64,000 bases of DNA. It comes from Burkholderiales bacterium (GTDB lineage Bacteria; Pseudomonadota; Gammaproteobacteria; Burkholderiales; JACQAP01). Where the stretch lies: positions 66,965 to 130,964 of the forward strand of contig DASZTG010000021.1 of NCBI GenBank assembly GCA_035548375.1, read 5' to 3'. Below are positions 1,563-39,254 of the stretch, in pieces. The notes under the pieces are model-generated. The model did not search any database. It was not told the origin of the DNA and saw nothing but the letters and a program-made list of their open reading frames with translations. Position numbers and translations under genes: made by a program. Every line of letters begins with the position of its first letter. Position 1 is the first letter of the stretch.

Positions 1563-1722
1563 ACATCCAACGCAGAGGCGCCGAGAGCGCAGAGTGCACA
1601 GAGGAAACGACTCAAAATGAGAAATGATCGCCAATCGCGGTTCAATCTCTACCAATTCTGCTTGTGTGCCCCCGAGTTCTCTGCGTTCTCCGTTTCTTCT
1701 CTGCGCCTCTGCGTTGGGTTTC
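1563..1722. repeat. Composite inverted-repeat intergenic element, copy A (CAGAG type)
   Basis: Left terminal CCAACGCAGAGGCGC (1567-1581) is the perfect reverse complement of GCGCCTCTGCGTTGG (1703-1717). The arms are made of CGCAGAG-like units around an AT-rich centre. It lies between the frmA stop and the fghA start. Confidence 0.8.
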
Positions 1723-1729
1723 GACTTAG

Positions 1730-2566
1730 ATGAAAACCATCAGCGAACACAGATGCTTCGAAGGCGTGCAGGGCTATTACTCGCACGCGTCGAAGGAGAT
1801 CGGCCTGGAGATGAAGTTCTCCGTGTTCGTCCCGCCGCAGGCGAAGGCCGGCAAGGCGCCGGTCCTGTATTACCTCGCGGGCCTGACGTGCACGGAGGAA
1901 ACGTTCGCGATCAAGGCGGGCGCGCAGCGCCTGGCGGCCGAACTCGGCCTGGTTCTGGTGGCGCCGGATACCAGCCCGCGCGGCGCGAACGTGCCGGGCG
2001 AAGCGGATTCATGGGATTTCGGCGTTGGCGCGGGCTTCTACGTCGACGCCACGCGCGAGCCCTGGTCGAAGCACTATCGCATGTACAGCTACGTGACCCG
2101 CGAGTTACCGGCGCTCGTTGCCGGGAAATTTCCGGTGGACACGGCAAGGCAAGGGATCTTCGGCCACTCGATGGGCGGGCACGGCGCGCTGGTCTGCGCA
2201 CTGCGCAACCCCGGCCAATACCAGTCGCTCTCGGCTTTCGCGCCGATCGCCGCCCCCATGCGATGCCCGTGGGGCAAGAAGGCGTTCAAGGGCTACCTCG
2301 GAGACGATCATGAAACCTGGAAGGAATACGACGCCAGCGATCTCATCAGGCGCATGTCGTTCGCGGGCCCGATCCTGATCGACCAGGGCCTCGCGGATAA
2401 ATTCCTGCCGGACCAGTTGTACCCCGAGGTCTTCGAGACCGCCTGCCGCGAATCGGACCAGCCGCTGGTCCTGAATCGCCGCGAGGGCTACGACCACGGC
2501 TATTTTTTCATTTCGACGTTCATGGAAAACCACCTTCGGCACCACGCCGACCAGCTCAAGAGGTAA
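1730..2566 (+). CDS. fghA: S-formylglutathione hydrolase (esterase D family)
   Basis: 278 aa. Motifs FSVFVPPQA, PVLYYLAGLTCTEE and the GHSMGGHGAL nucleophile elbow are typical of FghA/FrmB. It is the genomic partner of frmA. Confidence 0.93.
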   Translation: MKTISEHRCFEGVQGYYSHASKEIGLEMKFSVFVPPQAKAGKAPVLYYLAGLTCTEETFAIKAGAQRLAAELGLVLVAPDTSPRGANVPGEADSWDFGVGAGFYVDATREPWSKHYRMYSYVTRELPALVAGKFPVDTARQGIFGHSMGGHGALVCALRNPGQYQSLSAFAPIAAPMRCPWGKKAFKGYLGDDHETWKEYDASDLIRRMSFAGPILIDQGLADKFLPDQLYPEVFETACRESDQPLVLNRREGYDHGYFFISTFMENHLRHHADQLKR

Positions 2567-2569
2567 GCC

Positions 2570-3433
2570 ATGCAAAAACTACTCGTGTACCAATCGCTTT
2601 GGGCCATGGAACGCCGCCGTCCCGACGGCCTGGAATGGACCATGGACCAGAAGCTCGACATGATCCAGAAGGCGGGCTTCGACGGCTGCGGCGTGCGCTT
2701 CTTCGACTACAAGTACGCGAAGGAGATCACCGATTTCCTGCGCGCGCATGACATGACCTGGCAGGCCCAGTGCTATCCACAGAAAATAGACGACCTGAAG
2801 CCCATCCTCGAGCACGTGAAGGAACTCGGCGCGGACCACATCAACCTGCAGCCCGACGTGCGGCCTTATTCGATCCAGGAATGCATTCCCTACGTCGAGG
2901 GCTGGCGGCGGCTCGCGCACGACGCGAAGATCCCGGTGCACATCGAGACGCATCGCGATCGCATGACCACGGACCTGTTCTTCACGATGCAGCTGCTGGA
3001 CTGTTTCCCCGACCTGCGCCTGACGGGCGACCTGTCGCATTACGTGGTCGGCCGCGAATTCGCGTGGCCGATCAGCGAGGTCAACCATGGCTACATGCAT
3101 CGCATCCTCGACAACTGCTGGGGCTTCCACGGCCGCGTGGCGAGCCGCGAGCAAGTGCAGGTGCAGATCAGCTTCCCGCACCACAAGGACTGGCTCGACT
3201 TGTTCATGGGCTGGTGGGAGTACGGCCTGCGCAGCTGGCGCAAGCGCGCGCCGCGGGATGCGACGTTCACTTTCCTGTGCGAACTCGGGCCGAAGGAATA
3301 CGCGATGACCGGCCCGGACGGCTACGAGTTGTCGGATCGCTGGCAGGAAGCCCTGATGCTCACGGACATGATCAGGCAGTTATGGCAACGTCTTGAAAAC
3401 GAGGAAGCGCTGGGGTCGGCAAGGGCCGCGTGA
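2570..3433 (+). CDS. Probable xylose-isomerase-like TIM-barrel protein (sugar phosphate isomerase/epimerase family), tentative
   Basis: 287-aa ORF starting 4 nt after the fghA stop with good coding frame. The family call rests only on general resemblance of the N-terminal region (KLDMIQKAGFDGCGVRF) and length. Confidence 0.45.
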   Translation: MQKLLVYQSLWAMERRRPDGLEWTMDQKLDMIQKAGFDGCGVRFFDYKYAKEITDFLRAHDMTWQAQCYPQKIDDLKPILEHVKELGADHINLQPDVRPYSIQECIPYVEGWRRLAHDAKIPVHIETHRDRMTTDLFFTMQLLDCFPDLRLTGDLSHYVVGREFAWPISEVNHGYMHRILDNCWGFHGRVASREQVQVQISFPHHKDWLDLFMGWWEYGLRSWRKRAPRDATFTFLCELGPKEYAMTGPDGYELSDRWQEALMLTDMIRQLWQRLENEEALGSARAA

Positions 3434-3669
3434 ACGACGCCCCGGCGCCGGGGCGGGCAACGGGGGCTTTCCTAAAGGCCGGTAACTGGATAGAGTGGGT
3501 CGAAAGAACCGCCACCGGGCACGGTGATTCCTGGTTTTTCTTCCAGAAGAACCCGAGAGGCGCGATGCAAACACCATAATGATCACGGTGGGTCGCGTTC
3601 ATGCGTTTCAAGGGAGAAGTACCGCGCAATCCTGCGCGGCAGGGGATATCGCCTGGCCTGCGGCGCTGC

Positions 3670-4549: not shown

Positions 4550-7500
4550 ATGAACCGCGTCCTCCTGCTCGTGTTGACGACGTGCCTGCTCCTCGCCGGC
4601 TGTACGCAGGGCAATTCGGGCGACGAGGCGGCGACTGCGAGCGCGGACGCGCCTTCCGGCATCAATCGCTTCCTGCTGTTTCCGAACCCGATCGTCGATA
4701 CCGCCGGAAACTTCCAGACGGACACCGACGCCTACGCGCAGGCTTACTACGCCTCGGTGGATCCGAACGGCGAAAGGACGACGCTGGATTCCTGGAAGTC
4801 GAAAAACCAGTTCGGCCAGGGCGGCAGCGAGTTCGTCGCGGTATTCCGCGACGTGCGCGACCTGGGCTACGGCCGGCGCATGACGGGCCGTCGCAATGCC
4901 GACGGCAGCATCGCCTTCTACGTCGAGAACTACAACGTGGCCAACGCACCCGGCGGCTACTCGCAGGTCAACGTCGACGCCGCGGTCGCGCGCGATTCGA
5001 AGTGGCACGTGGGTACCAACGCCATCGAATGGAGTCCGGCCCAATGCACTGCGGCCGATCCCTCGAACTGCGACGCGACGGTGAAATACACGAAGTATTT
5101 CAACTTCGACCCTTCTTCCGGCCAGCGCCAGACCATGCTGAACCTCGACGGCCGCGGCCCGAAGGCGATGCCGGGCATCTGCGTGAACTGCCACGGCGGC
5201 CGACTCGACCCGCTCACGCCGCAGTCGACTTTCGCGCTGGTCGAGAACGCGGCATCGCGCAAGCGCGGCGACGTGCAAGCCAGGCTGCAGGGGTTCAACG
5301 TGGACAGCTTCGAGTGGTCGACGTTCGCCGGATTCAGGCGCGCGGACCAGGAAGCCGTCCTCAAGGCTTTCAACCAGTGGGTGCTGTGTTCCTATCCCGG
5401 CGGCGGAACGGTCTCCGGCACGTGGGGTAGTTGCACGCGGCCGTCCGCGGGCAGCAACGACTGGCAGGGTGCGGCGGCTCCCATGATCCAGAGCTGGTAC
5501 GGCGGCGCGGCCATGGCCAACGCGCAATTCTCCGACACCTATCTGCCGGCCGGCTGGACTGGCAACGCCTCGCTCTACCAGCAGGTCGTCGTGCCTTATT
5601 GCCGCACCTGCCATTTGTTGCGCGGCACCGCGAACCAGAGCGACATCGACTTCGACAGCGAGTCCAAGTTCAGCGGGTACGGCGCGCGCATCAAGGCGCA
5701 TGTGTTCGACCGCGGCAACATGCCGCTTGCCTTCCTGGTCTACCAGGGTTTCTGGAAGTCGAATGCGCCGTCCATCCTCGCGTCATACATCAATTCGCTC
5801 GCGATTTCCGGGTTGACGGCGACCGACGCCGGCGGCGCCCCGTTGCGCGCTGGCCGGCCGGTTGCGAATCCCGGCCCGGATCGCATGGTGCGCACGGGTG
5901 CGAACGCGAAGCTCTACGGCGGCGACAGCCTGTTCGCGAGCAGCTATAGCTGGACGCTGGATTCCGCGACGCCGGGTGCGACCATCAGTAATCCGAATTC
6001 CCCGACGGCGACGTTCTTCTCGAATTTTGCGGGCGCCTATACGGTGCATCTGACCGTGAGCAACCGCGGCGTCTCCGATTCGAAGGCCGTGACCATCACG
6101 GTCGACAACAATTTCCACGATCCGGCCACGATCAAGTTCGCGCACGTGAAATCCCTGTTGCAAAGCGCTTCGGCCACCTGCACCACCTGCCACCTGGTCC
6201 GTGCCGTGCCGCAGCCCGCCGCGACACCGCCGATCTGGTACACCGACTTCGATCGAAATTCCAGCGGAGGCGCGCCGGATGCCACCGACGACGCATGGCT
6301 CTACGAGGAAATAATGGGCCGCGTGAACCTGACCGAGCTGGCCGCCAGCCCGTTGCTCGGCAAGCCCGCGGGCAATCACCACAACGGCGCGACCCTGTTC
6401 AACCTCTCGGCCAACGCCGGCCTGACGAGCTATTCGATGCTGTACAACTGGATTCTGAACGGCGCGCCGGCAGGCGGCGTGGCGGCAAGCATCACGGCCA
6501 ATGCCGCCCCGGCGGTATCGTTTGTCGGCAGCCCACCCACGGCAACGATCCCGCTGAGCGGAACCGGCAGCATCGGCGCGACGACCTACGCCTGGACGAT
6601 TGCCCCGACACCGGTCCCGCCGGCTGGCGCGAGCCTCTCGACGCCGAACGCATCCACCGCCGTGCTCAATGTCCAGAACGTGGGCACCTACGTCGTGCAA
6701 CTGCTCGTCGGCAATGGAACGGAAAGCGACACCGCCACGCAACAGATCGTCGTGACCGAAACGCCATTGGCGTTCAGCCTTACTGTGGCCGGTCTGTCCG
6801 CGGGCAGCGTGGCAGTGCCGTTCAGCGGGGTGGGGCCGACAGGTACCATCAGTGTCACCACCTCCCAAAGTACCGGCAGTCCGTTGTCATGCAACTGGCA
6901 GGTGCTGCCGCCATCCTCCGGCGTCACGGTCGGGGCGAATTCGTGCGCCGGCGCGACGCTGAACGTAACGACGGCGGCGATAGGCAATAACTACACGTTA
7001 GAGCTGACCGAGCAAAACGTATCGCAGCCGCCGGTGACCGCGAGCCAGTCGTTCGTGGTGACGGCCGCGGCCGGATCCAGCCCGAGCGGCGCCAACTTCA
7101 CGCCGACTTCGGCCGCCATCGGCTTCACGATCAACAACAATCCCGGAAGCACGCCGACAGCCACCTCGGCCAGCCGACTGTTGACCGGCAGTGCTACCGG
7201 ACCAGGGACGCTGACCTACGCCTGGAGCGCGACGGCCGGATCGGCCGGGTGCTCGATTCCGGGCGGGGCGAGCACTTCGACCACCCGGACGCTGAGCTAC
7301 TCGGGCGTGGGGACGTGCAGTGTGACGCTGACGGTAAGCAACGGCATCCCGCCCGATGCCACCGTCAACCACACAGTGACGATAGCCTCGACCGTCGTCT
7401 TGTCCGACGTGGCCACCCTGCTGAACTCGGGTGCCGGCTGCACGTCTTGCCACAACGGTACGACGGCGACACCGTCCTGGATCAACGATTCCGGCCTCAA

Positions 7501-7681
7501 GTCTCGATTGCTCTCGACCATCAACCTCGGCGCGCCACAATCCAGCCTGTTGCTGGTTTGTCCGCATGACGCCAGCGCGCCCGCCTGCTCCGGCATGTCG
7601 GCGCCCCAGCCGGGTTTCGGTGCGGGGGACTTCACGAACTACGATGCGATCCTGACCTGGATCATCAACGGCACGCCGTGA
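4550..7681 (+). CDS. Large lipoprotein with four CxxCH motifs (cytochrome-c-like, PSCyt-type context) and PKD/Ig-like repeats
   Basis: 1043 aa. Lipobox LLLAGC, with Cys18 at 4601-4603. CxxCH motifs are CVNCH 5180-5194, CRTCH 5600-5614, CTTCH 6179-6193 and CTSCH 7439-7453. Repeated Thr/Ser/Gly-rich beta modules such as YSWTLDSATPGATISNPNSPTATFFSNFAGAYTVHLTVSNRGVSDSKAVTITV look PKD-like. Confidence 0.8.
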   Translation: MNRVLLLVLTTCLLLAGCTQGNSGDEAATASADAPSGINRFLLFPNPIVDTAGNFQTDTDAYAQAYYASVDPNGERTTLDSWKSKNQFGQGGSEFVAVFRDVRDLGYGRRMTGRRNADGSIAFYVENYNVANAPGGYSQVNVDAAVARDSKWHVGTNAIEWSPAQCTAADPSNCDATVKYTKYFNFDPSSGQRQTMLNLDGRGPKAMPGICVNCHGGRLDPLTPQSTFALVENAASRKRGDVQARLQGFNVDSFEWSTFAGFRRADQEAVLKAFNQWVLCSYPGGGTVSGTWGSCTRPSAGSNDWQGAAAPMIQSWYGGAAMANAQFSDTYLPAGWTGNASLYQQVVVPYCRTCHLLRGTANQSDIDFDSESKFSGYGARIKAHVFDRGNMPLAFLVYQGFWKSNAPSILASYINSLAISGLTATDAGGAPLRAGRPVANPGPDRMVRTGANAKLYGGDSLFASSYSWTLDSATPGATISNPNSPTATFFSNFAGAYTVHLTVSNRGVSDSKAVTITVDNNFHDPATIKFAHVKSLLQSASATCTTCHLVRAVPQPAATPPIWYTDFDRNSSGGAPDATDDAWLYEEIMGRVNLTELAASPLLGKPAGNHHNGATLFNLSANAGLTSYSMLYNWILNGAPAGGVAASITANAAPAVSFVGSPPTATIPLSGTGSIGATTYAWTIAPTPVPPAGASLSTPNASTAVLNVQNVGTYVVQLLVGNGTESDTATQQIVVTETPLAFSLTVAGLSAGSVAVPFSGVGPTGTISVTTSQSTGSPLSCNWQVLPPSSGVTVGANSCAGATLNVTTAAIGNNYTLELTEQNVSQPPVTASQSFVVTAAAGSSPSGANFTPTSAAIGFTINNNPGSTPTATSASRLLTGSATGPGTLTYAWSATAGSAGCSIPGGASTSTTRTLSYSGVGTCSVTLTVSNGIPPDATVNHTVTIASTVVLSDVATLLNSGAGCTSCHNGTTATPSWINDSGLKSRLLSTINLGAPQSSLLLVCPHDASAPACSGMSAPQPGFGAGDFTNYDAILTWIINGTP

Positions 7682-29173: not shown

Positions 29174-29203
29174 GGGCGGCATTCTTGCCGCCCTTTTTCA
29201 TTT
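29174..29203 (+). terminator. Rho-independent terminator
   Basis: Stem GGGCGGCA / TGCCGCCC with loop TTCT, followed by TTTTTCATTT. Confidence 0.75.
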
Positions 29204-29278
29204 GGGCTCCGCATTTCCCGGTTCGCAGCCACCCGCGAATGTGCAAGAATCAGCGCACTTTTCGGGGGAGATCAAGAC

Positions 29279-30259: not shown

Positions 30260-30274
30260 AGCCTACGGATCAGA

Positions 30275-30482
30275 TTTCACCACGGAGAACACGGAGAGAC
30301 ACGAAGAAAGGCCAAAGACAATACTGGAGATATTCTTCGCTGACGAAGTTTCCGGTTCCAAAATATTCGCGTCCAACGTCATATTCGCCAATTTTTATTC
30401 CGATCCTTCGTTTTTCTCTGTGTATCTCCGTGTTCTCCGTGTGCCCCTCAAGGGGGCATTAAAGTGAATCTCCGTGGTGAAA
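30275..30482. repeat. Composite inverted-repeat intergenic element, copy E (CGGAG type, 28-nt module in opposite orientation)
   Basis: TTTCACCACGGAG (30275-30287) opposes CTCCGTGGTGAAA (30470-30482). The module TGCCCCTCAAGGGGGCATTAAAGTGAAT lies at 30442-30469. Confidence 0.8.
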
Positions 30483-31292: not shown

Positions 31293-32643
31293 CACGACCG
31301 CCGTCGCGGCGCTGGTCGTCGCCGTGCTGCTGGCGTATTTCAACGCGCTTGGCGCCGCCTTCCAGTTCGACGATATCAATGTCATCGTCGATAACCTCGC
31401 AGTGCACTCCTTCGCGGCCTGGTCGGATTCGATGCCCGGCATACGGCCGCTGCTGAAATTTTCCTATGCGCTGAACTGGACGCTGCACGATTCGCCGTTC
31501 GGGTTTCATCTTTTCAACGTCGCGTTGCATGCGGTCAACACCGTCCTGGTCTATCGCCTGCTGCAGTCGCTATCCCGCGCGCAGTCGCTGGCACCCGAGG
31601 CGAACTGGTGCCGGGCACCGCTCATCGGCGCAATGCTGTTCGCGCTGCATCCGGTGCAGACCGAGGCGGTGACTTATATATCCGGCCGCTCGGTGTCGCT
31701 GATGGCGTTGTTCTACCTCGGCAGTGCATTGGCGTGGATGCGCGTGGGCCACGACGAAGCGGGTCGATCATGGCGATTGTTCTCCGCTTTGCTATTTGGC
31801 CTGGCGTTGCTGGTGAAGGAAACGGCCGTTACCTTGCCCCTTGCGTTGCTTTTGCTGGATGCGTGGGCCTTGCACGAGCCGGGCGACTTGCGCCAGCGGC
31901 TGTTGCGCCTGCGCTGGCATTTCCTGGTGCTGGCGTTTTCCGTCGGCGTGATGCTCGCGAGCACGACCTACCGGCATCTGCTCGATGTCAGCTTGTCCGC
32001 GCGCGGCATGCTGGACAACCTGCTGACCCAGGTGAACGCGGTGTGCTGGCTGGCGCGGCAGATCATCATGCCGTGGAATCTGAACGCGGACCCCGACCTG
32101 CCGGTCATTACTGCGATGTCGCTGCCGCTGCTGCTGCAAGTGATCGTCGTGGCGGGAATCCTGTATGCCGGATTTCGCGGCATTCGCAGCCGGCGCTGGC
32201 TGGCGTTCGCGGTCCTGTGGCTTTTCCTCCACCTGCTGCCGACGAATTCTTTGCTGCCAAGGCTAGACGTTGCGAACGATCGCCAGCTCTATCTCGCGCT
32301 CATCGGCGGTTTCTTCGTGATCGGTCTGGGAGTGGAGGCGCTGGCAACGCGGTTTCGACGCCCGCAATGGCTTGTCGGCGTTGCGCTGGCACTGCTGCTC
32401 GCGCTTGGCATCGGCACGTTCCAGCGCAACGAGACCTATGCTTCGCCGATTGCCTTCTGGGAGGACGCGCTGGCGAAATCGCCGCGCAAGGCGCGGGTGG
32501 CCAACAATCTCGGCTATGCCTACCAGCAGGCCGGCCGGCTTGCTGAAGCGAAACTCGCCTACCAGCAAGCCATCGCTGCGGACCCGGACTACTGGCGGGC
32601 CCGCATCAACCTCGAAGCGCTGGAAGCGGCGGAGAAGCGCTGA
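31279..32643 (+). CDS. Polytopic membrane protein with C-terminal TPR repeats (TMTC/PMT-like glycosyltransferase family candidate)
   Basis: The N-terminus has about 9-10 TM segments (FQFDDINVIVDN.. is typical of TPR-membrane proteins). The C-terminus reads NNLGYAYQQAGRLAEAKLAYQQAIAADPDYWRARINL (TPR). Confidence 0.65.
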   Translation: MLRSDTTAVAALVVAVLLAYFNALGAAFQFDDINVIVDNLAVHSFAAWSDSMPGIRPLLKFSYALNWTLHDSPFGFHLFNVALHAVNTVLVYRLLQSLSRAQSLAPEANWCRAPLIGAMLFALHPVQTEAVTYISGRSVSLMALFYLGSALAWMRVGHDEAGRSWRLFSALLFGLALLVKETAVTLPLALLLLDAWALHEPGDLRQRLLRLRWHFLVLAFSVGVMLASTTYRHLLDVSLSARGMLDNLLTQVNAVCWLARQIIMPWNLNADPDLPVITAMSLPLLLQVIVVAGILYAGFRGIRSRRWLAFAVLWLFLHLLPTNSLLPRLDVANDRQLYLALIGGFFVIGLGVEALATRFRRPQWLVGVALALLLALGIGTFQRNETYASPIAFWEDALAKSPRKARVANNLGYAYQQAGRLAEAKLAYQQAIAADPDYWRARINLEALEAAEKR

Positions 32644-32667
32644 CCGGTACGGCTTTGATGACAACGC

Positions 32668-33981
32668 CTAGGCTGACGCGGCCTGTCCTTCCGGGTTGAC
32701 CCGCGCAACCTGGCGGCCCACGATCAGCGCGACGATGGCGCCGATCAGCAAGCAGGTCGCGAGGAAAGTCAGCCCGGCCTTGAAACCGCCGGCGTTGTCC
32801 TTCAGCCAGCCCACGGCGAACGGGCCAATGAAGCCGCCGAGGTTGCCCACGGAATTGATGAATGCGATGCCGCCGGCAGCGGCGACGCCCGTCAGATAGC
32901 CGGTCGGCATCGCCCAGAACGTCGGCTGCGAGCAATACATGCCGATCGCCACCACCGTCATGCAAGTCATTGCCAGCACCGGGGATTCGACGCCGGCATA
33001 GGCGCTGCACAGCATGGCGATGCCGGCAAGTCCGAGTGCACCGGCGCAGTGGAAGGTGCGCTCGCCGGTCTTGTCCGAGTGCCGCGACCACAGCACCATG
33101 CAGATCGTCGCGATCAGGTACGGGATAGCCATGACCAGGCCGATGTCGAGCTTGTCCTTCACGCCCATGGCATTGATGAGCTGTGGCATCCACAGGCTCA
33201 GGCCATAAATGCCGATGGCAAGCGACGTATAGACCACCGCGAACATCAGGATCTTCGGGTGCCCGATCGTCTGCCAGAGCGACAGGTGCTTCGTTTCGAC
33301 GCGCGCCGCGGCCTCACGCTCGAGCGTGGTCTTGAGGTATGCCTTCTCGGCGTCGGTCAGCCACTTCGCGTTTTCCGGCTTGTCGATGACGGCCTTCAGC
33401 GTGATGAACCCGAGGACGACGGAGGGGATGCCTTCGATGATGAACAGCCAGCGCCAGCCCGGATAGCCGAGCGTGCCGTCGAAGTATTTGAGGATCAAGC
33501 CGCCGAGCGGCGCCGCGATGGTGTTGTTCAGCGGGCTGATGATCAGGAACAGGCCGAAGATGCGGCCGCGGTACTCGGCAGGGAACCAGAGTGTCAGGTA
33601 GTAGATCACGCCCGGGAAGAACCCTGCTTCCGCCACGCCGAGCAGGAAGCGCGTGACGAAGAAGCTCACGTCCCCGGTGATGAAGCCCATCGCGACCGCC
33701 ATGATCCCCCAGGTGATCATGATGCGCGCGAACCAGATGCGCGCGCCGATCTTCGACAGGATCATGTTGCTGGGCACCTCGCCGATGAAGTAGCCGATGA
33801 AGAACAGGCCCGCGCCCCAGCCGAACACGGTCGCCGTGAATCCCAGTTCGGCGTTCATGGTCAGCGCCGCGAGGCCGACGTTCAGGCGGTCGATGATGCA
33901 GATCAGGTAAGTCAGCAGCAGGAAGGGCAATACCTTCCACGCCATCTTGCGCACCAGCGCCTGTTCTTCGGCTTTCGTCAT
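32668..33981 (-). CDS. MFS transporter, anion:cation symporter (ACS) family
   Basis: 437 aa with 12 TM segments. ICIIDRLNVGLAALTM...GYFIGEVPSNMILSKIGAR is typical of the ACS family (tartrate/phthalate/galactonate-type). Confidence 0.9.
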   Translation of the reverse strand: MTKAEEQALVRKMAWKVLPFLLLTYLICIIDRLNVGLAALTMNAELGFTATVFGWGAGLFFIGYFIGEVPSNMILSKIGARIWFARIMITWGIMAVAMGFITGDVSFFVTRFLLGVAEAGFFPGVIYYLTLWFPAEYRGRIFGLFLIISPLNNTIAAPLGGLILKYFDGTLGYPGWRWLFIIEGIPSVVLGFITLKAVIDKPENAKWLTDAEKAYLKTTLEREAAARVETKHLSLWQTIGHPKILMFAVVYTSLAIGIYGLSLWMPQLINAMGVKDKLDIGLVMAIPYLIATICMVLWSRHSDKTGERTFHCAGALGLAGIAMLCSAYAGVESPVLAMTCMTVVAIGMYCSQPTFWAMPTGYLTGVAAAGGIAFINSVGNLGGFIGPFAVGWLKDNAGGFKAGLTFLATCLLIGAIVALIVGRQVARVNPEGQAASA

Positions 33982-34017
33982 GGTCCTCTCCCCTGGAAAA
34001 CTATTACCTGATTATTT

Positions 34018-34158
34018 TTACCACGGAGGACACGGAGTAAACACAGAAAAGCATTACGAGAAACGGAGCAGGTGAATCGGGTGTCCAAAAATTTCGACCG
34101 CGTCGACCTGTTCCGTCCTTCTCTTCTCGATGGATGTTCTCCGTGTTCTCCGTGGTTC
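34018..34158. repeat. Composite inverted-repeat intergenic element, copy F (CGGAG type)
   Basis: CCACGGAGGACACGGAG (34021-34037) opposes CTCCGTGTTCTCCGTGG (34139-34155), with one mismatch. Confidence 0.75.
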
Positions 34159-34178
34159 ACGCCTTGGATCTTGGTGTA

Positions 34179-35435
34179 TCAGTTTTTGCTTTCGCTCGAC
34201 GCCCATTTCTTCATGAGCATGTTCGACGGGAAGTGCTCGTCCACCAGCTTGCGCGCGGTTTCCGCGCCTGCAACCGGCAGCCCGGTTTTCTTCGGGTCGA
34301 GCAGGCCGATCTGCACCAGCACCGAAGCCTGGTCCCAGTAGATGTGCTCGTGGTAGAGCTTGTCGCCGCGGAAATTCACGATCGCGACCAGCGGGATCTC
34401 TACGTATTTTCCCGTCGGCGCCACGCCGGGCAGCATCCAGTCGATCTCGATGTCGTGCGTGAAGCAGAACAGCATCTCGTCGACCAGCCGGTCCGAGCCG
34501 ATGGTGCGCGAGATCGGGATCAACTTCGTGTCCTTCGGCGTGGTCGGAATGAAATGATGTTTGTAGAAGCGCTTGAGATGATCGTGCCCCACGCCGCCGG
34601 TGATGGTCGGGATGTGGTTCACGTAGGGCTCGGGCACCATGGTCTTCATGGTGGCGTCGACGTCGCGCGTGCCGAACTCGTGCATCGTATGCGCTTCCCA
34701 CAACGCCGACAGGTCGTAGTGCGGGCCCATGACCCTGCGGAACAGCGCGATGGAACGCGAGTGCGCCATCATCGCGGCGGGACGGTCGAAATGCATGCCG
34801 CCGGTGCGCGCGAACGCGTGGTCCACGCCGGGATAGACATAGATCTCGACGTCGTTGCGGCCCTTGAACGTCTCCTTGATCTGGTCCACCACCGCGGGCG
34901 GCGCGTACTTGTCCTCGGCCGCAAAATGCAGTTGCAGCGGCACCTTGATCTTGCCGGCTTCGTTGAGATATTTCTCGATGGTCACGCCGTAATAGCCGAC
35001 TGCGCAGTCAACACCCGAGCGGGCCGCCGCGAGATAGGCGAGGCGCCCGCCCAGGCAGAATCCCAGCGCGCCGACCTTGCCGGTGTGCTCCGGCCGCGTG
35101 CGCAGGGTCCGTACCGCGGCGGTGATGTCGTCCATGGCCTTGTCGACGTCCAGGCGCTGCAGCAGATCGAAGGCCTTCTTCCACTCGGTTTCCGAGTATC
35201 CAAGGTCGACGTCCTTCTCGAGGCGCCAGAAGAGATCGGGTGCCAGCACCACGTAGCCTTCCTCGGCGTAATACTCGGCGACCTCGCGGATGTATGCGTT
35301 GATGCCGAAGATTTCCTGGCACAACACGATGCCCGGGCCCTTGCCCGATGCCGGGACCGTGAGATAGCCACGGAACTTGCCGCCGTCGGCGGCCTTGATT
35401 TCTATCCACTGCCCCTTCGATGCGGACCCAGCCAT
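34179..35435 (-). CDS. Dienelactone hydrolase (carboxymethylenebutenolidase-like) fused to an NTF2/SnoaL-like domain
   Basis: 418 aa. The N-terminal ~235 aa carry GPGIVLCQEIFGIN..GALGFCLGG..HAF (DLH family). The C-terminal ~180 aa form a separate globular domain of NTF2-like length and pattern. Confidence 0.8.
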   Translation of the reverse strand: MAGSASKGQWIEIKAADGGKFRGYLTVPASGKGPGIVLCQEIFGINAYIREVAEYYAEEGYVVLAPDLFWRLEKDVDLGYSETEWKKAFDLLQRLDVDKAMDDITAAVRTLRTRPEHTGKVGALGFCLGGRLAYLAAARSGVDCAVGYYGVTIEKYLNEAGKIKVPLQLHFAAEDKYAPPAVVDQIKETFKGRNDVEIYVYPGVDHAFARTGGMHFDRPAAMMAHSRSIALFRRVMGPHYDLSALWEAHTMHEFGTRDVDATMKTMVPEPYVNHIPTITGGVGHDHLKRFYKHHFIPTTPKDTKLIPISRTIGSDRLVDEMLFCFTHDIEIDWMLPGVAPTGKYVEIPLVAIVNFRGDKLYHEHIYWDQASVLVQIGLLDPKKTGLPVAGAETARKLVDEHFPSNMLMKKWASSESKN

Positions 35436-35512
35436 GACGCTCTCCAGTTATTGTTCTTGCTGCATCGCAGTGCGCGGCAGCGTGGACAGCGGACCTTTTA
35501 CCGTGGGGAACT

Positions 35513-35569
35513 GCGCCGTGTCAAACCACGGCGCAGAGAATAGCCAGGCGCCGTGTCAAACCACGGCGC
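35513..35569. promoter_or_regulatory. Two copies of a 22-bp perfect palindrome in the divergent DLH / binding-protein promoter region (candidate operator)
   Basis: GCGCCGTGTCAAACCACGGCGC occurs at 35513-35534 and again at 35548-35569. Confidence 0.5.
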
Positions 35570-35714
35570 GGGGGAAATTCCCGTGCGGCGCGAAAGGTGT
35601 GGCGCGGCTTGACAAGCAGGGGCCGCCAACCTAGATTCCCGCCGGTCCTTTCGTCATACAAAACAAGCGCGTCGAATCCTCGATCGCGCCTTCGCATTCA
35701 ACCGGGGGTACCAC

Positions 35715-37262
35715 ATGAATCCGTTCACGCGCCGACGCTTCCTGCAGGCATCGGGAGCAGCCGCCCTGACCGCGCCGCTCGCCAGTTCCCTGATCCTCAC
35801 GAACGAGGCCCATGCGCAGTCCGGCAAGGTCCTCACGATTGCCTACAACGTCGCGCTGCCGTCATGGGATCCGACCACCGGGCCGTCGGCGGTGAATCCG
35901 ACCATCCAGTCGCTCTACAAGGCGGTGTTCGATTCCTACATCGACCAGAATCCCGACCTGTCCTTCAAGCCGGGCCTGCTGACGAAGTGGGGCTGGAACA
36001 AGGACAAGACCAAGGTCGAGATGGAAGTGCGCAAGGATGCGTTCTGGCACGACGGCACGCCCGTCACGCCCGAGGACGTGGTGTGGTCGCTGGAGCGCGC
36101 GGGCGACCCCAAGAGCGGCAACCCGATCCAGTTCGTCTGGGGCAAGATCGGCAACTTCAAGATCGACGGCCACAAGGTCACGGCCGACGTGAAGGAATTC
36201 GAGCCGGCGCTGTTCAAGTGGATGGCTTTCCTCACGGGCTACGTGCTGCCGAAGAAAGCCTACACCGCGGCGGGAGCAGAAGGATGGGAAGCGAAGCCCG
36301 TCGGCAGCGGCCCGTACATGGTCGAGAAGTTCGAGCGCAACGCCTACATCCGCCTCAAGGCGTTCCCGAAATACTGGGGACCCAAGCCTGCCTTCGACAC
36401 GGTCGTGTTCAAGCTCGTTGGCGACGCGTCCGCGCGCGTGGCGGAAATCGAAAGCGGCTCGGCCGACCTGACGCTGGAAGTGCCCTACGAGGAATTCGAC
36501 CGGTTGAAAGCGAAGAGCGGCCTGGCCGGCGTAGCGCACCCGGTGTCCGACATCGGCATGATCTTCATCACCAACATCGAGCCCATGCTCGATGCCAACG
36601 TTCGCCAGGCCATGGTGCAATCCATCGACAAGAAGGCGATCGTCGACAAGCTGTTGCATGGCTACGGCACCGTCATCGATACGCTGGAAGCCCCGCAGTA
36701 CGCAGCCTTCGATGCGTCGATCAAGACCAAGTACGACCCGGAAGCCGCGAAGCAACTGCTCGCCAAGTCTGGATTTTCCACGTCGAAGCCGGTGAAGTTC
36801 ACGATCCAGACCACGCGCGGCTTCAAGCCCAAGGACTACGAAATGATCCAGGCCGTGGTCGGCATGTGGCGCAAGGTCGGCATCGAGGCGAACGTCGAGA
36901 CTTATGAAATTGCCAAGCACTTCGAGCTGCGCATGCGCCACGGCCTCGCTCCCGCAGCGTTCTACAACTGGGGCAATTCCATCGGCGATCCGTCGACCTC
37001 CACGGGGTTCGCCATGTTCAGCCACTCGCCGCACTCGGCGTGGAAGACCGACGACGTCGACGCGAAGATCGGCCCGCTGTGGGGCGAGAAGGACGAGGCA
37101 AAGCGCATCGCCGGCTGGAAGGCCGCCGATCGCTACATCGCGGACAACGCCTACGTAATCCCGCTGCTGCAGTATTCGCAGCCCGTCGTGTACAAAAGCA
37201 GCATCAAGTTCACGCCCCACGTCGCCGGGTTCATCCTGCCGCAGAACATCAGGCCTGCTTAG
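35715..37262 (+). CDS. ABC transporter substrate-binding protein, family 5 (peptide/nickel/opine type), paralog 1
   Basis: 515 aa. Tat-type signal RRRFLQASGAAALTAPLA. The body is family-5 SBP-like (GSGPYMVEKFERNAYIRLKAFPKYWG). Confidence 0.9.
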   Translation: MNPFTRRRFLQASGAAALTAPLASSLILTNEAHAQSGKVLTIAYNVALPSWDPTTGPSAVNPTIQSLYKAVFDSYIDQNPDLSFKPGLLTKWGWNKDKTKVEMEVRKDAFWHDGTPVTPEDVVWSLERAGDPKSGNPIQFVWGKIGNFKIDGHKVTADVKEFEPALFKWMAFLTGYVLPKKAYTAAGAEGWEAKPVGSGPYMVEKFERNAYIRLKAFPKYWGPKPAFDTVVFKLVGDASARVAEIESGSADLTLEVPYEEFDRLKAKSGLAGVAHPVSDIGMIFITNIEPMLDANVRQAMVQSIDKKAIVDKLLHGYGTVIDTLEAPQYAAFDASIKTKYDPEAAKQLLAKSGFSTSKPVKFTIQTTRGFKPKDYEMIQAVVGMWRKVGIEANVETYEIAKHFELRMRHGLAPAAFYNWGNSIGDPSTSTGFAMFSHSPHSAWKTDDVDAKIGPLWGEKDEAKRIAGWKAADRYIADNAYVIPLLQYSQPVVYKSSIKFTPHVAGFILPQNIRPA

Positions 37263-37267
37263 GGATT

Positions 37268-37514
37268 ACATCCAACGCAAAGGCGCAAAGAACGCAAAGA
37301 ACGCAAAGAACGCAAAGGACGCAAAGGATTCACTTCAATACTCCCTTGCGGGGTACGCAAAGAAGGCCAGGACGGTATTTGCATTCGGCCGATGGCGCGA
37401 GGGCTTGATGTGCCAGCGTGCTCGACGATGATCGCCCATGTCAGATTCCTGAAGGATATTTCGGTTTCGGGTTTCCTTTGCGATCTTTGCGTTCTTTGCG
37501 CCTTTGCGTTGGGT
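37268..37514. repeat. Composite inverted-repeat intergenic element, copy G (CAAAG type, with 28-nt module)
   Basis: CCAACGCAAAGGCGC (37271-37285) opposes GCGCCTTTGCGTTGG (37497-37511). Five tandem 9-mers CGCAAAGRA span 37283-37327. The module ATTCACTTCAATACTCCCTTGCGGGGTA lies at 37327-37354. Confidence 0.85.
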
Positions 37515-37534
37515 TGAAATGAGGAGGATCTAGA

Positions 37535-39067
37535 TTGTCGGACGAATTCTCGAGAAGGCGCTTTCTGCAAGCATCCGGCGCGACGGCGCTGTCAGCGTTG
37601 CTGTACGGGCCATATGCGCGCGCGCAATCCGGCAAGACGCTGACCATCGCGTACAACACGTCGCTGCCTTCGCTCGATCCGACCAGCAGCGCGAAGACAT
37701 CGAGCCCCGCGGTGCAGTCGATCTTCAAGGCGATTTTCGATCCCTACGTCGACCAGAATCCGGATCTTGGTTTCAAGCCCGGCGCGCTGACCAAATGGGG
37801 CTGGAACAAGGACAAGAGCGCGATCGAGCTGACGTTGCGCCGCGGCATGCTCTGGCATGACGGCACGCCGGTCACCATCGACGACCTGGTGTGGTCGCTG
37901 CAACGCGCGGGCGACGAGAAGAACGGCAACCCGATGCAGTTCATGTGGCGCAAGCTCGGCGGCTTCAAGGTGAGCGGCGACACCGTCAGCGTCGAGGTGA
38001 AGGAATTCGAGCCGGCATTGCTCAAGTGGCTGGGTTTCCTCACGGCCTACATCCTTCCTAAGAACGCATTCACCGCTGCCGGCGGGGCCGCGGGCTGGGA
38101 CGCGAAGCCAATCGGCAGCGGCCCCTACATGGTCGAGAAGTTCGAGCGCGATGCCTATATCCGGCTCAAGGCATTCCCGAAATACTGGGGGCCGAAGCCG
38201 GCGTTCGAGACAGTCGTCTTCAAGTTCGTGCCGGATGCCGCGAGTCGCGTTGCCGAAATCGAGAGCGGCGCGGCCGACATGACGCTCGAAGTGCCGTACG
38301 AGGAATACGACCGGCTCATTGCGAAGCCGGGGCTCGCTGGCGCGGCATATCCGATGTCCGACATCGCCATCCTGTTCATCACCGATCGCGAGCCCATGCT
38401 GGATGCGAACGTGAGGCTTGCCGCGGCGCACGCCATCGACAAGAAGGCCATCGTCGACAAGCTCATGCGCGGCTACGGTCGTCCGCTCGACACGCTGCAG
38501 GCGCCGGACTACGCCGCCTACGATACATCGATCAAGGTGAAATACGATCCCGAGCTGGCGAAAACCCTGCTCGCGAAATCCGGTTATTCGCCGTCGAGGC
38601 CGGTCAAGTTCACCGTGCAGACCACGCGCGGCTACAAGCCCAAGGACTACGAATCCGTGGCGGCCATCGTGGCGATGTGGAAGAAAGTCGGCATCGAGGC
38701 AGACATCGAGGTGCTCGACGTCGCCAAGCACTTCGACCTGCAGTTGCGCCACGCGCTGGCGCCCGCGTCGTTCTACAACTGGGGCAATTCGATCGGCGAT
38801 CCATCGACCTCGACGGGCTTCGCGTTCATCGGCCCGTTCGCGGTATGGCGCTCGCCGGACGTCGAGAAGATGGTCGGACCGCTGTTCGTGGAGCGCGACG
38901 AGGCAAAACGCATCGGCGGCTACAAGGACGTCGATCGTTATCTCGCCGAACAGGGCTATGTGATCCCGTTGTTCCAGTACTACCAGCCGGTCGTGCACAA
39001 GAAGAGCATTACCTTCACGCCGCACGGCGCCGGCACCATCGCTCCTCAGTCGATAAGGCCGGTCTAA
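37535..39067 (+). CDS. ABC transporter substrate-binding protein, family 5, paralog 2
   Basis: 510 aa. TTG start after GAGGAGG. Tat-type signal RRRFLQASGATALSAL. It is collinear with paralog 1 and roughly two-thirds identical by eye. Confidence 0.9.
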   Translation: MSDEFSRRRFLQASGATALSALLYGPYARAQSGKTLTIAYNTSLPSLDPTSSAKTSSPAVQSIFKAIFDPYVDQNPDLGFKPGALTKWGWNKDKSAIELTLRRGMLWHDGTPVTIDDLVWSLQRAGDEKNGNPMQFMWRKLGGFKVSGDTVSVEVKEFEPALLKWLGFLTAYILPKNAFTAAGGAAGWDAKPIGSGPYMVEKFERDAYIRLKAFPKYWGPKPAFETVVFKFVPDAASRVAEIESGAADMTLEVPYEEYDRLIAKPGLAGAAYPMSDIAILFITDREPMLDANVRLAAAHAIDKKAIVDKLMRGYGRPLDTLQAPDYAAYDTSIKVKYDPELAKTLLAKSGYSPSRPVKFTVQTTRGYKPKDYESVAAIVAMWKKVGIEADIEVLDVAKHFDLQLRHALAPASFYNWGNSIGDPSTSTGFAFIGPFAVWRSPDVEKMVGPLFVERDEAKRIGGYKDVDRYLAEQGYVIPLFQYYQPVVHKKSITFTPHGAGTIAPQSIRPV

Positions 39068-39072
39068 GGACT

Positions 39073-39254
39073 ACACCCAACGCAAAGACGCAAAGGACGC
39101 AAAGGAAAGCAAGAACAAGAAAAAAGATCGGGGAAGATAACTGCTGGCCAGGCGATGGTCGCTGAGGGTTTCGCCTGAAGTCGCCAAAGATTGAATTTCC
39201 TCGTTCCCGCTTTCTTTGCGACCTTTGCGTTCTTTGCGTCTTTGCGTTGGGTGG
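39073..39254. repeat. Composite inverted-repeat intergenic element, copy H (CAAAG type)
   Basis: CACCCAACGCAAAGACGCAAAG (39074-39095) has a perfect complement at the right end, ..CTTTGCGTCTTTGCGTTGGGTG (39232-39253). Confidence 0.8.

Follow-up and report, generated by a model that had tools for sequence, protein, structure and literature searches.

Inverted arrays of a nine-base unit behind genes of a Burkholderiales bacterium belong to a hairpin repeat family that spans at least eight phyla

Eight elements (A to H) in a 64,000-nucleotide stretch of a Burkholderiales genome, here called the window, are true copies of a non-coding hairpin repeat in which the two arms are mirror-image runs of a nine-base unit. 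Related copies follow genes in at least eight bacterial phyla, and the family seems to be undescribed. The best explanation, to which we give an even chance, is that A to H are copies of a non-coding, non-autonomous repeat of REPIN or foldback type with slippage-prone arms. A preliminary description of the window had listed eight elements with inverted arms, tandem units and the capacity to fold, and all of these features were borne out at the positions given.

Copy A (1563-1722), between frmA (445-1557) and fghA (1730-2566), has the CCAACGCAGAGG end box and CGCAGAG and CACAGAG units, and its arms pair partly in a shifted register (RNA fold of -70.2 kcal/mol, z = -6.4). Copy B (20551-20741) is of the CCACGGAG type, with 2.9 TCTCCGTGA units in the right arm (z = -6.0). 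Copy C (21873-22047), with a gene for a zinc-type alcohol dehydrogenase (20756-21859) on one side and one for a hydrolase on the other, has 3.8 ACGCAAAGG units (RNA fold of -86.8 kcal/mol, z = -9.2), and copy D (23095-23185) is a short version built of GGGTGAG/GTGAGG units (z = -4.3). Copies E (30275-30482) and F (34018-34158) are also of the CCACGGAG type; E has three CACGGAGAA units per arm (z = -7.2), and F (z = -5.6) is flanked by two minus-strand genes, for an MFS transporter (32668-33981) and a DLH hydrolase (34179-35435). Copy G (37268-37514), between two tandem SBP_bac_5 genes, has 6.0 AACGCAAAG units in the left arm and 4.0 in the right (z = -9.4), and copy H (39071-39256), in the convergent spacer after the second of these genes, has about three units in the left arm and 3.9 in the right. 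Three arms hold a small nested hairpin: ACATTCTTTTTTATACCCCCTTGAGGGGTG on the plus strand in the left arm of B (20563-20592), as seen in the sequence, the reverse complement of ATTCACTTTAATGCCCCCTTGAGGGGCAC on the minus strand in the right arm of E (30441-30469), and ATTCACTTCAATACTCCCTTGCGGGGTAC on the plus strand in the left arm of G (37328-37356). The motif of the small hairpin in B recurs in G, in E (in reverse orientation) and in L117, a locus in another genome, where a near-identical copy of the small hairpin of G occupies the same position within an arm.

The inverted arms measure 37 nt in G (97% complementary), 35 nt in H (94%), 38 nt in E (82%), 30 nt in C (97%), 20 nt in A (95%), 21 nt in D (90%), 18 nt in F (94%) and 25 nt in B (76%, with a perfect 11-nt terminal match). 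All are tandem arrays with a period of 7-9. Tandem Repeats Finder, with which the units were called, gave period 9 with 6.0 copies at 37274-37326 (G) and 3.8 copies at 21879-21911 (C); about 3-4 copies at 39080-39106, 39213-39246, 30281-30308, 30414-30442 and 20708-20733; and period 7 with 4.4 copies at 23098-23128 (D). All eight sites form long hairpins when folded as RNA or DNA (z = -4.3 to -9.4), and the complementarity of the arms far exceeds that of shuffled sequence; no shuffle folded as well as the copies, either as RNA (A to D, with stem-loops of -45 to -90 kcal/mol) or as DNA (G, z = -7.1; H, z = -8.9). Among 27 spacers of 50-320 nt, z was -5 or lower in the seven holding A and C to H and nowhere else (B, being split by a gene call, was folded separately), and no other spacer in the window behaves alike. 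There was no Rfam match except spurious microRNA-precursor matches to D, far below threshold, and the centres resemble neither one another nor the other DNA compared. The centres are comparatively AT-rich, as previously noted (42-56% GC against about 63% for the window), and are purine-rich in the left half and pyrimidine-rich in the right half.

Seven of the eight copies form one superfamily, with D set apart by its GTGAGG units. The superfamily layout opens with an end box YCCA(A)C and two to six CRCRRRG units, each with one or two spacer bases, which degenerate towards the middle; a centre unique to the copy comes next, and the array then returns in mirror image. The unit variants CGCAGAG, CGCAAAG, CACAGAG, CACGGAG, CACGAAG, CACGGGG and CGCGGAG differ by transitions and all go with a CCA(A)C end, which unites them in one superfamily; the two terminal boxes described earlier are likewise no separate families but variants of one unit series that differ by transitions. 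The window holds 29 CRCRRRG unit pairs, 27 of them inside the elements, against a mean of 2.2 and a maximum of 6 in block shuffles.

The preliminary description had suggested a genome-wide family, and the family in fact reaches far past this genome: a scan of public genomes found at least 117 loci. A partner arm, counted when at least 17 of 24 bases matched, was verified in 77 of the 117 loci listed and in one of 126 shuffled controls. The hosts belong to at least eight phyla, those listed being Beta- and Gammaproteobacteria, Acidobacteriota, Verrucomicrobiota, Planctomycetota, Bacteroidota, Myxococcota and Chloroflexota, and the loci include Mb-scale contigs and the complete genome of Sorangium cellulosum (Myxococcota). 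One 19-mer, together with additional units, recurs across these phyla at dozens of loci that are not linked, and elements are dispersed over many contigs of a single genome. A near-identical 19-mer in distant phyla is awkward for any known bacterial MITE or REPIN system, since these are lineage-specific.

DNA-uptake sequences (DUS and USS) are frequently found as inverted pairs at gene 3' ends. We give next to no credence to the idea that the arms are arrays of a genome-wide signal word of this or a Chi-like kind, piling up as inverted pairs behind genes. The placement is similar and the unit "dialects" differ between genomes while agreeing within one, but outside the elements the words show no enrichment, with 9 occurrences of CGCAAAG against 7.4 expected and with CGCAGAG, CACGGAG, CACAGAG and GGTGAGG below expectation. 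CACGAAG is the only unit heptamer above expectation outside the elements (15 against 7.5), and it occurs once inside an element. One word shared by many phyla is also unlike a species-specific signal.

The family is dispersed at the 3' flanks of genes, as had been proposed: 63 of 71 elements are no more than 60 nt away from the 3' end of a gene. Divergent spacers hold elements less often (3 of 17 against 18 of 37, p = 0.04), and some copies nonetheless occur there. In six copies the stem base lies 3-20 nt past the upstream stop, and B and D overlap the end of the upstream ORF. For B the overlap had been understated. Its left part provides the final 30 codons, stop included, for the ORF at 19982-20641, which reads 90 nt into B; GC3 in this ORF is 0.77 up to 20551 and 0.33 beyond. 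The ORF that stops at 20552 uses a frame that is not coding (GC2 0.75-0.78), and 19982-20641 is the true upstream gene. In D, the first unit includes the TGA stop of the upstream gene. On the other side, seven copies have a downstream gene on the same strand, and in five of these 8-20 nt separate the end of the stem from the next start codon.

Some of these features recall the attC sites of integrons, and A to H would then be cassette boundaries in an integrase-less array (CALIN), recombined by IntI on a folded strand. A, C, G and H have ends that fit RYYYAAC ... GTTRRRY (ATCCAAC/ACCCAAC ... GTTGGGT), B, C and D bracket single genes with each hairpin starting just past a stop codon, and two adjacent elements in L072 have their flanks interchanged in the manner of cassette junctions. 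Such an identity is nevertheless very improbable. Neither the window nor the adjoining 8.3 kb upstream encodes an integrase, and only three weak tyrosine-recombinase matches were found among the 117 loci listed. The CCACGGAG and GTGAGG types lack AAC/GTT, and the stems are near-perfect from the base, without unpaired central spacer or extrahelical bases. The flanking genes are core genes in an order shared with relatives, such as the frmA-fghA operon pair, and a single genome has elements scattered over many of its contigs. Variation between GTTGA and GTTAG at one end is a consequence of a search pattern that demanded CCAAC at the other, so that the view of the ends is biased by the selection of loci.

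A classical identity is quite improbable too, whether as REP or BIME elements or as intrinsic terminators of unusual shape. The copies are extragenic palindromes at 3' ends, and in many Burkholderiales copies CTAC ... GTAG stands just beyond the CCAAC box, at a distance of a few bases; however, the arms do not have the form of short 20-40 bp palindromes, their GTAG is on the 3' rather than the 5' side, and classical GTAG-headed REPs form a separate class in the same genomes. REPs have small internal palindromes and a 5' GTAG/CGTC tag, and the arms of A to H are without both. The one RAYT-like gene found adjoins such a GTAG-headed REP, not a unit hairpin. As for terminators, A to H do not look like intrinsic ones: none of the eight copies has a U-tract, a terminator scan detected none of them, and canonical terminators exist apart from the copies, at 29172-29195 in the window and at 6290-6330 in L130. 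The family resembles REP, BIME or MITE elements and matches none of them, as the preliminary description held. Its layout was less novel than had been thought, since the nearest published precedent is found in Xanthomonas, in which inverted tandem arrays of the heptamer GGGAATC lie immediately behind stop codons (PMC4692102).

The same placement would suit an RNA element selected by the host, in which hairpins stabilize or process polycistronic mRNA, for example by blocking 3' exonucleases or offering RNase III sites, or couple translation, and in which a conserved RNA-binding partner sets the sequence. In its favour are the high stability of the stems and their location at the 3' ends of genes and within operons; each of the two substrate-binding-protein genes is followed by one, in the classic REP position. 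Most close relatives have a hairpin in the frmA-fghA spacer and in the one that separates the two binding-protein genes. A Polaromonas subfamily of about 91 nt combines conserved arm sequence with free loops, and it preserves two G.U pairs on one strand. We nonetheless consider this reading unlikely, and the structural or RNA-level role first suggested gained no support from the stem pairs. Stem mismatches give G.U on the transcribed strand in 27 cases and on the other in 29 (p = 0.89), a lack of strand bias as expected of a symmetric process at the DNA level, and none of 31 pairs is compensatory in the Polaromonas subfamily, the one that could be aligned. Sites can be empty in close relatives without replacement, copies occur in divergent spacers, B and D overlap coding sequence, and elements turn over fast beside a canonical terminator conserved in four genomes.

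Comparisons between relatives show that the arms gain and lose units independently, that copies come and go, and that other unit families can take their place at the same sites. In genomes L028 and L085 (88% DNA identity), two elements at shared sites have the same centre and different numbers of units per arm (4 against 3 and 4 against 5; 5 against 4 and 3 against 4), and a third shared site has CACGGGG units in one genome and CGCAAAG in the other. The frmA-fghA spacers of relatives L120 and L121 hold elements with other unit variants than copy A, whose centre cannot be aligned with theirs (z = 1.9 and 0.6) while promoter spacers there align at 61-77%. The G site has CGCAGAG, CACGAAG, CGCGAAAG or CACAGAG variants in relatives, and the H site has CGCAAAG, CGTGACT or CGTGAAT elements, the latter two in L133 and L135, with a partly deleted version in L137. 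The spacer after fghA is 3 nt long in the window and contains an element in L120, L121 and L124; the DUF3299 junction is filled in L121 and L124 and empty in the genome of the window and in L120. An element of about 190 nt in L072 is absent from the same site in L049, which retains GGTGTAGG, the outer 8 nt of one end. The comparisons also show that copies can persist at one site for long, and that arms can recombine and so invert the centre, which is found inverted between strains 99.8% identical.

Many of these changes could arise without any movement between loci, if a seed palindrome at each site expanded by slippage and its arms were corrected by template switching. The elements would then be an inverted form of the "long simple sequence repeats" of Burkholderia, Xanthomonas and cyanobacteria. 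Unit number varies per arm at shared sites, unit variants form a continuum by transitions, both arms of one element share lineage-specific variants (as in L120), and the centre halves have the composition that decayed units would have. Abundant repeats of 5-11 nt are reported in Burkholderia (PMC4679880), and the Xanthomonas arrays vary at the same sites in similar fashion (PMC4692102). We regard purely local growth as rather unlikely, however. Chance convergence on one 19-mer and its units at so many loci and in so many phyla is implausible, genomes 88% identical carry unrelated unit families at a shared site, copies within a genome resemble each other more than the same-site copies of relatives, and Polaromonas copies at separate loci share the same differences between their arms.

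These shared differences, identical across loci and genomes while the loops are unrelated, point to copy-and-paste descent, and are among the reasons for preferring a REPIN- or foldback-like repeat. The arms of such a repeat would change unit number independently by replication slippage, and the hairpin survives gain or loss of units because repetitive arms still pair in a shifted register. Spread would be served in trans, as is thought for REPINs moved by a single-copy RAYT. The window encodes no integrase, transposase or RAYT by Pfam and tblastn, as first described, no mobility gene recurs near the elements, no conserved core or parent IS of which they could be fragments was found, and neither a target-site duplication nor a sharp boundary of insertion could be made out. 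The 8-base remnant in L049 fits the asymmetric excision reported for REPINs, which leaves about 6 bp of one end (PMC3116915). Recent simple copy-and-paste is countered by C, G and H, with near-identical arms yet unrelated centres; this requires either old copies with arms constrained in sequence or fast replacement of centres. The want of REP palindromes and tags in the arms, the 19-mer in distant phyla and the failure of the centre of A to align with those of L120 and L121 weigh against the preferred reading as well.

For the host, a transcribed stem could act as a barrier to 3' exonucleases or as a cleavage site for RNase III, by analogy with the REP elements after malE and hisJ, and it would hold a stop codon and the next start close together, so that translation of the operon would be tolerated. 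Such an effect on host mRNA is regarded as a side effect that may let the element persist, and not as the reason for its sequence.

The eight hairpin elements first noticed by eye are all present in the sequence, at 1563-1722 (A), 20551-20741 (B), 21873-22047 (C), 23095-23185 (D), 30275-30482 (E), 34018-34158 (F), 37268-37514 (G) and 39071-39256 (H), and the preliminary description of them is largely right: the feature is real and statistically strong. Their arms are among the strongest inverted repeats that a repeat finder returns in the window (18-38 nt, 76-97% complementarity); the remaining inverted pairs shown are mostly 71-80% matches within GC-rich coding DNA. Tandem Repeats Finder gives period-9 arrays of ACGCAAAGG, CACGGAGAA and their complements in the window, as well as a period-7 GGGTGAG array in D. 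As RNA, elements A-D fold at -45 to -87 kcal/mol (z -4.3 to -9.2), and G and H folded as DNA have z values of -7.1 and -8.9; in no run did a shuffled control fold as well as A-D (RNA) or G and H (DNA). When 27 intergenic spacers (50-320 nt) were folded, z was -5 or lower in the seven holding A and C-H and ranged from -3.1 to +0.9 in the others; B is cut by a gene call and was folded separately from this set. Pairs of CRCRRRG units number 29 in the window against 2.2 expected, with 27 of the 29 inside elements, and this count gives no further copies at 39.3-64 kb.

The two terminal boxes that had been distinguished are not separate, but variants of one design, in which a CCA(A)C end box is followed by CRCRRRG units with one or two spacer bases. 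The unit is CGCAAAG in C, G, and H, CGCAGAG or CACAGAG in A, CACGGAG in B, E, and F, and GTGAGG in D. Stems are unbroken from the base over 17-37 bp. The centres have nothing in common, either mutually or with other DNA then compared, and within them residual complementarity is absent (mean z 0.6), the left halves being purine-rich and the right halves pyrimidine-rich. The elements have, in short, two inverted conserved ends and a less conserved spacer that together form a hairpin.

The genes around the elements, in the window and in 8.3 kb upstream of it, are ordinary metabolic, transport, and regulatory genes by Pfam, and the closest named relatives of the window are Burkholderiales metagenome-assembled genomes (MAGs). 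Pfam is negative for an integrase, transposase, or RAYT both in the window, as had been said of it, and in that upstream stretch; a tblastn search with approximate IntI1 and RayT sequences gave no match in the window. The gene at 25687-26688 encodes a bacterial type IB topoisomerase (Pfam Top1B_N_bact, Topoisom_I), a kind of enzyme that is uncommon in bacteria. The spacers of seven copies separate co-directional genes and that of the eighth separates convergent genes; all six divergent spacers of the window are free of copies. A sits within the frmA-fghA pair, and G and H come after two tandem substrate-binding-protein genes with the Pfam domain SBP_bac_5. In the loci fetched from other genomes, 63 of 71 family elements are flanked within 60 nt, on one side or both, by the 3' end of a gene, with gene calls that are heuristic except in annotated loci and MAG taxonomy as labelled. 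In the annotated loci, a unit hairpin occupies 3 of 17 divergent spacers and 18 of 37 others (p = 0.04), the three divergent cases being a single element at a common site counted in three genomes. A CGTGAAT-unit hairpin at one site in three genomes (L120 5080-5223; L121 4991-5412; L130 5304-5458) lies in a divergent promoter spacer with a total length of 144-422 nt, so promoter regions are not strictly avoided.

The statement that each copy starts just after the upstream stop codon applies to six copies, with the stem 3-20 nt after the stop, but not to B and D, which overlap the end of the upstream ORF. In D the upstream TGA stop is inside the first unit. B does overlap a stop codon, as described, but not simply: the upstream gene (frame 19982-20641, GC3 0.77, GC2 0.47) reads 90 nt into B, and therefore B supplies its last 30 codons and stop. 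The final 30 residues of the annotated 219-aa product, NHGEHSFLYPLEGCGDYGAERSEGQGNGF, are thus encoded by B, where GC3 is 0.33, and this drop at the junction suggests a C-terminus that is probably not native to the protein. At the other end, in five of the seven copies with a same-strand downstream gene, 8-20 nt separate the foot of the stem from the next start. With the stem near both, folding would bring the stop and the next start close, and this proximity may preserve translational coupling.

A role at the RNA level, which had been suggested as one possibility, is not demonstrated. Across 42 strand-assigned elements, 27 mismatches would form G.U on the mRNA strand and 29 would do so only on the other strand (p = 0.89). 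In a Polaromonas subfamily that is alignable over about 91 nt, with arms conserved in sequence around unrelated loops, none of 31 predicted pairs has compensatory changes. The hairpins are not intrinsic terminators either, as no T-runs follow the eight stems, a terminator scan of 20001-40000 reported none of A-H, and canonical terminators occur elsewhere in the genome, apart from the hairpins. Because strand bias and compensatory changes are both absent and terminators are separate, the evidence favours a symmetric origin and upkeep of the hairpins at the DNA level; an RNA effect is plausible. The idea that the arms are binding arrays for CsrA (GGA), Hfq (ARN), or Rho (YC) was set aside, since these motifs would be buried in the stem and are missing in many unit variants. 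The sequence CUGCG-UUGGAUC presumably resembles the 3' end of 16S rRNA (CUGCGGUUGGAUC), but the resemblance is limited to a subset of flanks and mimicry was dropped as coincidence. A canonical two-way intrinsic terminator (AAAAAACCGGCG..CGCCGGTTT) is kept in four genomes, and the unit hairpin adjoining it differs in family in each (L130 6206-6353, about 2 kb upstream of the window; L124 3393-3590; L121 6163-6308; L120 5995-6299).

Rfam has no match at gathering score in the whole window; with the limit relaxed to E <= 1, positions 1-40000 give spurious microRNA matches to D and no others. A REP unit is a 20-40 bp imperfect palindrome with GTAG or CGTC at the 5' end; the arms here are tandem 8-9 nt units with no internal palindromes and no such 5' head, and the classical REP was rejected. 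The sequence CTAC...GTAG does occur outside some copies, yet on the 3' side of the arm. A standard MITE was rejected as well, there being no common core and no parent IS; no target-site duplication was seen either, direct repeats being absent around A-H. Integron attC sites were suggested by RYYYAAC ... GTTRRRY ends, which fit A, C, G, and H, but not B, E, F, or D; they were rejected, as there is no attC fold or cassette context, and no integrase in the window or in the 8.3 kb upstream. The unpaired central spacer and extrahelical bases of attC are likewise not seen in these stems, which are continuous from the base, and an attC-like pattern, "non-complementary after G|TT", proved to be an artefact of a search pattern that fixes CCAAC at one end. 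Nor is the region a gene-cassette array, since no intI is nearby and gene order is conserved with relatives, including the frmA-fghA operon. DNA uptake or Chi-like words were also rejected, because five of the six unit heptamers do not exceed expectation outside the elements in the window; the exception is CACGAAG, with 15 occurrences outside against 7.5 expected and just one inside an element. Telomerase-like repeat addition at both ends of a break accounts for the mirror layout, but many templates would be needed, and the differences between arms are conserved across copies, which argues against fresh arm synthesis each time.

The family extends beyond the window. A scan of 185,579 species genomes with the pattern CCAACGCARAGRCGCARAG, which fixes CCAAC at one end and so biases the view of the spread, gave at least 117 loci. 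Nearly all of the matches listed (117 loci) carry on into further units, and 77 of these 117 have a partner arm, defined as a reverse complement matching at least 17 of 24 bases within 450 nt, as against 1 of 126 shuffled controls. Loci with a partner arm number at least 34 in Gammaproteobacteria, 23 in Betaproteobacteria, six in Acidobacteriota, five in Verrucomicrobiota, two each in Planctomycetota, Bacteroidota, and Myxococcota, and one each in Chloroflexota, Hydrogenedentota, and a Bathyarchaeia bin, where the locus is on a 5-kb contig and doubtful. This breadth is not explicable by mis-binning, because clean hairpins are present in the complete genome of Sorangium cellulosum So0157-2 and on Mb-scale contigs of Vicinamibacterales and Dehalococcoidia. 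Other tandem-unit arms at the listed loci include CACAGAG, CGCGGAG, CACGGGG, CACGAAG, CGTGAAT, ACAGGATT, and TTCAAAA, among others. A periodicity filter for counting tandem-armed hairpins in loci L133-L212 was too strict, missing known copies, and only its qualitative gradient was used. No neighbouring gene family recurs among the 117 loci listed, where the ORF clusters represent widespread domains, for example those of histidine kinases or ABC ATPases. Carriage by phages or plasmids was rejected, since the two viral matches are by chance and without arrays and there is no plasmid match. A literature search by literal sequence found no relevant paper.

Classical GTAG-headed REPs also occur at the listed loci, as a class separate from the unit hairpins. 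In one of them (L038), a RAYT-like gene fragment at 112-384, the single RAYT-like gene found, matched with an approximate RayT query and then confirmed by Pfam (Y1_Tnp, E = 1.8e-7), adjoins such a REP (GTAGGGCCGAATTCATTCGGCC) at 436-494; thus a REP/RAYT system coexists with the unit hairpins, yet is distinct from them.

Relatives with the same gene order, retrieved through FghA and the binding-protein gene, show how the elements change at shared sites. Loci L028 and L085, with 88% DNA identity, share two elements that have the same centre, and unit counts differ between them (left 4 versus 3 and right 4 versus 5 in one; 5 versus 4 and 3 versus 4 in the other), so that unit number changes on each arm independently, as by slippage. 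At a third site shared by this pair the families are unrelated (CACGGGG versus CGCAAAG), and such replacement is also seen at the site of H, which has CGCAAAG, CGTGACT, or CGTGAAT elements in different relatives. Unit variants also shift together: in the frmA-fghA spacer the window carries CGCAGAG, L120 CACAGAG/CACGGAG, and L121 CGCAAAG, with the same unit variant on both arms in each, and the spacer between the two binding-protein genes has CGCAAAG, CGCAGAG, CACGAAG, CGCGAAAG, or CACAGAG, depending on the relative. No alignment is possible between the centre of A and those of L120 and L121 (z 1.9 and 0.6), while promoter-bearing spacers of those same genomes align at 61-77% (z 11-23). Whole elements are also gained or lost. 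The spacer 3' of fghA is 3 nt in the window and holds an element in three relatives, and the DUF3299 junction is empty in the genome of the window and in L120 but filled in L121 and L124. At another site L072 has an element of about 190 nt where L049 has a 10-nt spacer, which retains GGTGTAGG, the outer 8 nt of one element end; after REPIN excision, about 6 bp of one end reportedly remain (PMC3116915). No target-site duplication is seen in this filled/empty pair, but its genomes are only about 75% identical. A CCCCTCTCCCC-type hairpin at L124 1885-1967 has its centre inverted with respect to L125 and L127, metagenome contigs with 99.8% identity, while the arms are unchanged, which points to recent recombination between both arms.

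Smaller features accompany these elements. A mini-hairpin of about 29 nt with CCCC/GGGG, ATTCACTT..ATACCCCCTTGNGGGGTAC, is nested in one arm of B (20563-20592), G (37328-37356), and E (30441-30469, reverse), and at the same place within the arm in a Burkholderiales MAG (L117, reverse strand from about 871); from its placement, it looks like a tiny element inserting into larger hairpins. A related mini-hairpin, GATACCCTACGTGC...GCACGTCGGGTATC, occupies the very tip of short CCAACGCAG...CTGCGTTGG elements in relatives (L124 9925-9975; L133 3913-3979; L137 1280-1345; L143/L144 5558-5614). The composite occurs at three unrelated sites in different genomes, which would mean that the composite is mobile as one piece or that the mini-hairpin has hairpin tips as its target. 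In an element shared by L049 (6270-6450) and L072 (3520-3640), the left part of the centre is conserved, and the Shine-Dalgarno sequence AAGGAG, a short gap, and ATG/TTG open a possible small ORF through the right arm (MSDGMDEFYL... / LSDGLARFYL...), which may be chance. Between frmA and fghA, one group of relatives has a PKD-like gene (weak Pfam match, 809 aa; L124 7460-9889), and a 1043-aa protein with similar Pfam matches is encoded further downstream in the window (4550-7681); as its place differs within an otherwise conserved order, this gene has moved.

Several known systems share part of this description. Inverted arrays of tandem heptamers have been reported as GGGAATC in Xanthomonas and GGGGA(C/T)T or STRR in Nostoc (Rehm et al. 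2015, PMC4692102). Those of Xanthomonas occur as convergent pairs able to form a stem-loop in 70-75 cases per genome, between co-directional ORFs and within 50 bp of a stop, and are rare between divergent ORFs; they have no IS link or known function, and their length and sequence vary at the same site in related genomes (PMC4692102). The present elements are like them in position behind stops, scarcity in divergent spacers, and variability at shared sites. However, they differ from the Xanthomonas and Nostoc arrays in the CRCRRRG unit, which has a period of 8-9 and is not G-rich (D alone has quadruplex potential), in the defined CCA(A)C end box and unique centres of 30-130 nt, and in having a unit common to several phyla and evidence of whole-element gain, loss, and replacement. 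Both belong among long simple sequence repeats, with units of 5-11 nt (Mrazek et al. 2007, as summarised in PMC4679880), which are abundant in Burkholderia, Xanthomonas, and cyanobacteria. At least two tandem units of 5-11 nt, convergent pairs, intergenic position near stops, and copy number that varies between relatives are all found here, and the unit hairpins fit that loosely defined class, more precisely the inverted-array form of Xanthomonas GGGAATC.

REPINs, hairpin-forming REP doublets mobilised by RAYT (Bertels & Rainey 2011, PMC3116915), are extragenic as well, measure about 70-250 nt, and combine conserved ends with a spacer of low conservation; they too are non-autonomous, with the transposase not nearby, and their gain or loss leaves a few bases of one end. 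Unlike REPINs, the unit hairpins have non-palindromic tandem-unit arms, no 5' GTAG/CGTC head, and no cognate RAYT in the window or in the 8.3 kb upstream, and REPIN families are lineage-specific whereas the CRCRRRG unit spans phyla. In population behaviour, the unit hairpins most resemble REPINs, with conserved ends, a free spacer, presumed service in trans, and an asymmetric footprint. In architecture they are closest to eukaryotic Foldback elements (Drosophila FB; Galileo, PMC3573991), which have long terminal inverted repeats made of short tandem repeats, a variable or absent middle, and a very dynamic structure. The resemblance is in architecture only, as Foldback elements are eukaryotic and kilobase-sized, and Galileo has a known P superfamily transposase. 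Bacterial MITEs such as Correia, ERIC, and Nezha are small, non-coding, and intergenic with terminal inverted repeats, and sometimes lengthen neighbouring ORFs, as B does here, but MITEs have a conserved core, target-site duplication, and parent IS that were not found. Integron attC sites share the hairpin just after a stop and, in the CCAAC type, RYYYAAC/GTTRRRY-like ends; they differ in that the present elements have a core-gene context without integrase and include other unit types without AAC/GTT. The REP/BIME elements of Escherichia coli, differing in sequence, size, and architecture, offer a functional parallel: reportedly, work of the Higgins laboratory in the 1980s placed them after malE and hisJ, and stable stem-loops in operons directly after substrate-binding-protein genes are what G and H represent. 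By analogy, the hairpins would likely protect upstream mRNA from 3' exonucleases.

A reading with about an even chance of being correct is that the family is a non-autonomous repeat of REPIN- or foldback-like character, whose arms are prone to slippage; it would be tolerated at the 3' flanks of genes, and any REP-like effect on mRNA would be a side consequence. A bolder and rather unlikely reading is that it represents the first bacterial counterpart of Foldback, a non-autonomous family of many phyla whose arms would be arrays of binding sites for a widely conserved enzyme acting in trans, with the centre rebuilt or exchanged at each move. Such rebuilding would explain conserved arms around unrelated cores; candidates for the enzyme are a RAYT-like HUH clade not described before and a recombination or repair protein of the host, and the family would have crossed phylum boundaries horizontally.

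The novelty lies in the unit family and end box, in the dynamics of the elements, and in their cross-phylum breadth. Little in bacterial genomes is understood as poorly as short dispersed repeats of the REP, REPIN, and long simple sequence repeat kinds, and this family unites slippage-prone tandem repeats with hairpin-forming dispersed repeats, which are usually treated apart. Unit and end box are nearly unchanged from Burkholderiales to Sorangium, Acidobacteriota, and Chloroflexota, which is unusual for non-coding DNA, and this breadth points to horizontal spread with a broadly available mobilising function or to a conserved partner that reads the unit. The elements have practical consequences as well: they break short-read assemblies (the contig of L002 ends within or just beyond B and C), they lengthen gene calls by spurious C-terminal ends, as B does, and they flag fast-changing positions within operons that are otherwise conserved. 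If they are REP-like, the hairpins would also determine how strongly adjacent genes are expressed relative to one another in uncultured Burkholderiales of soil and groundwater.
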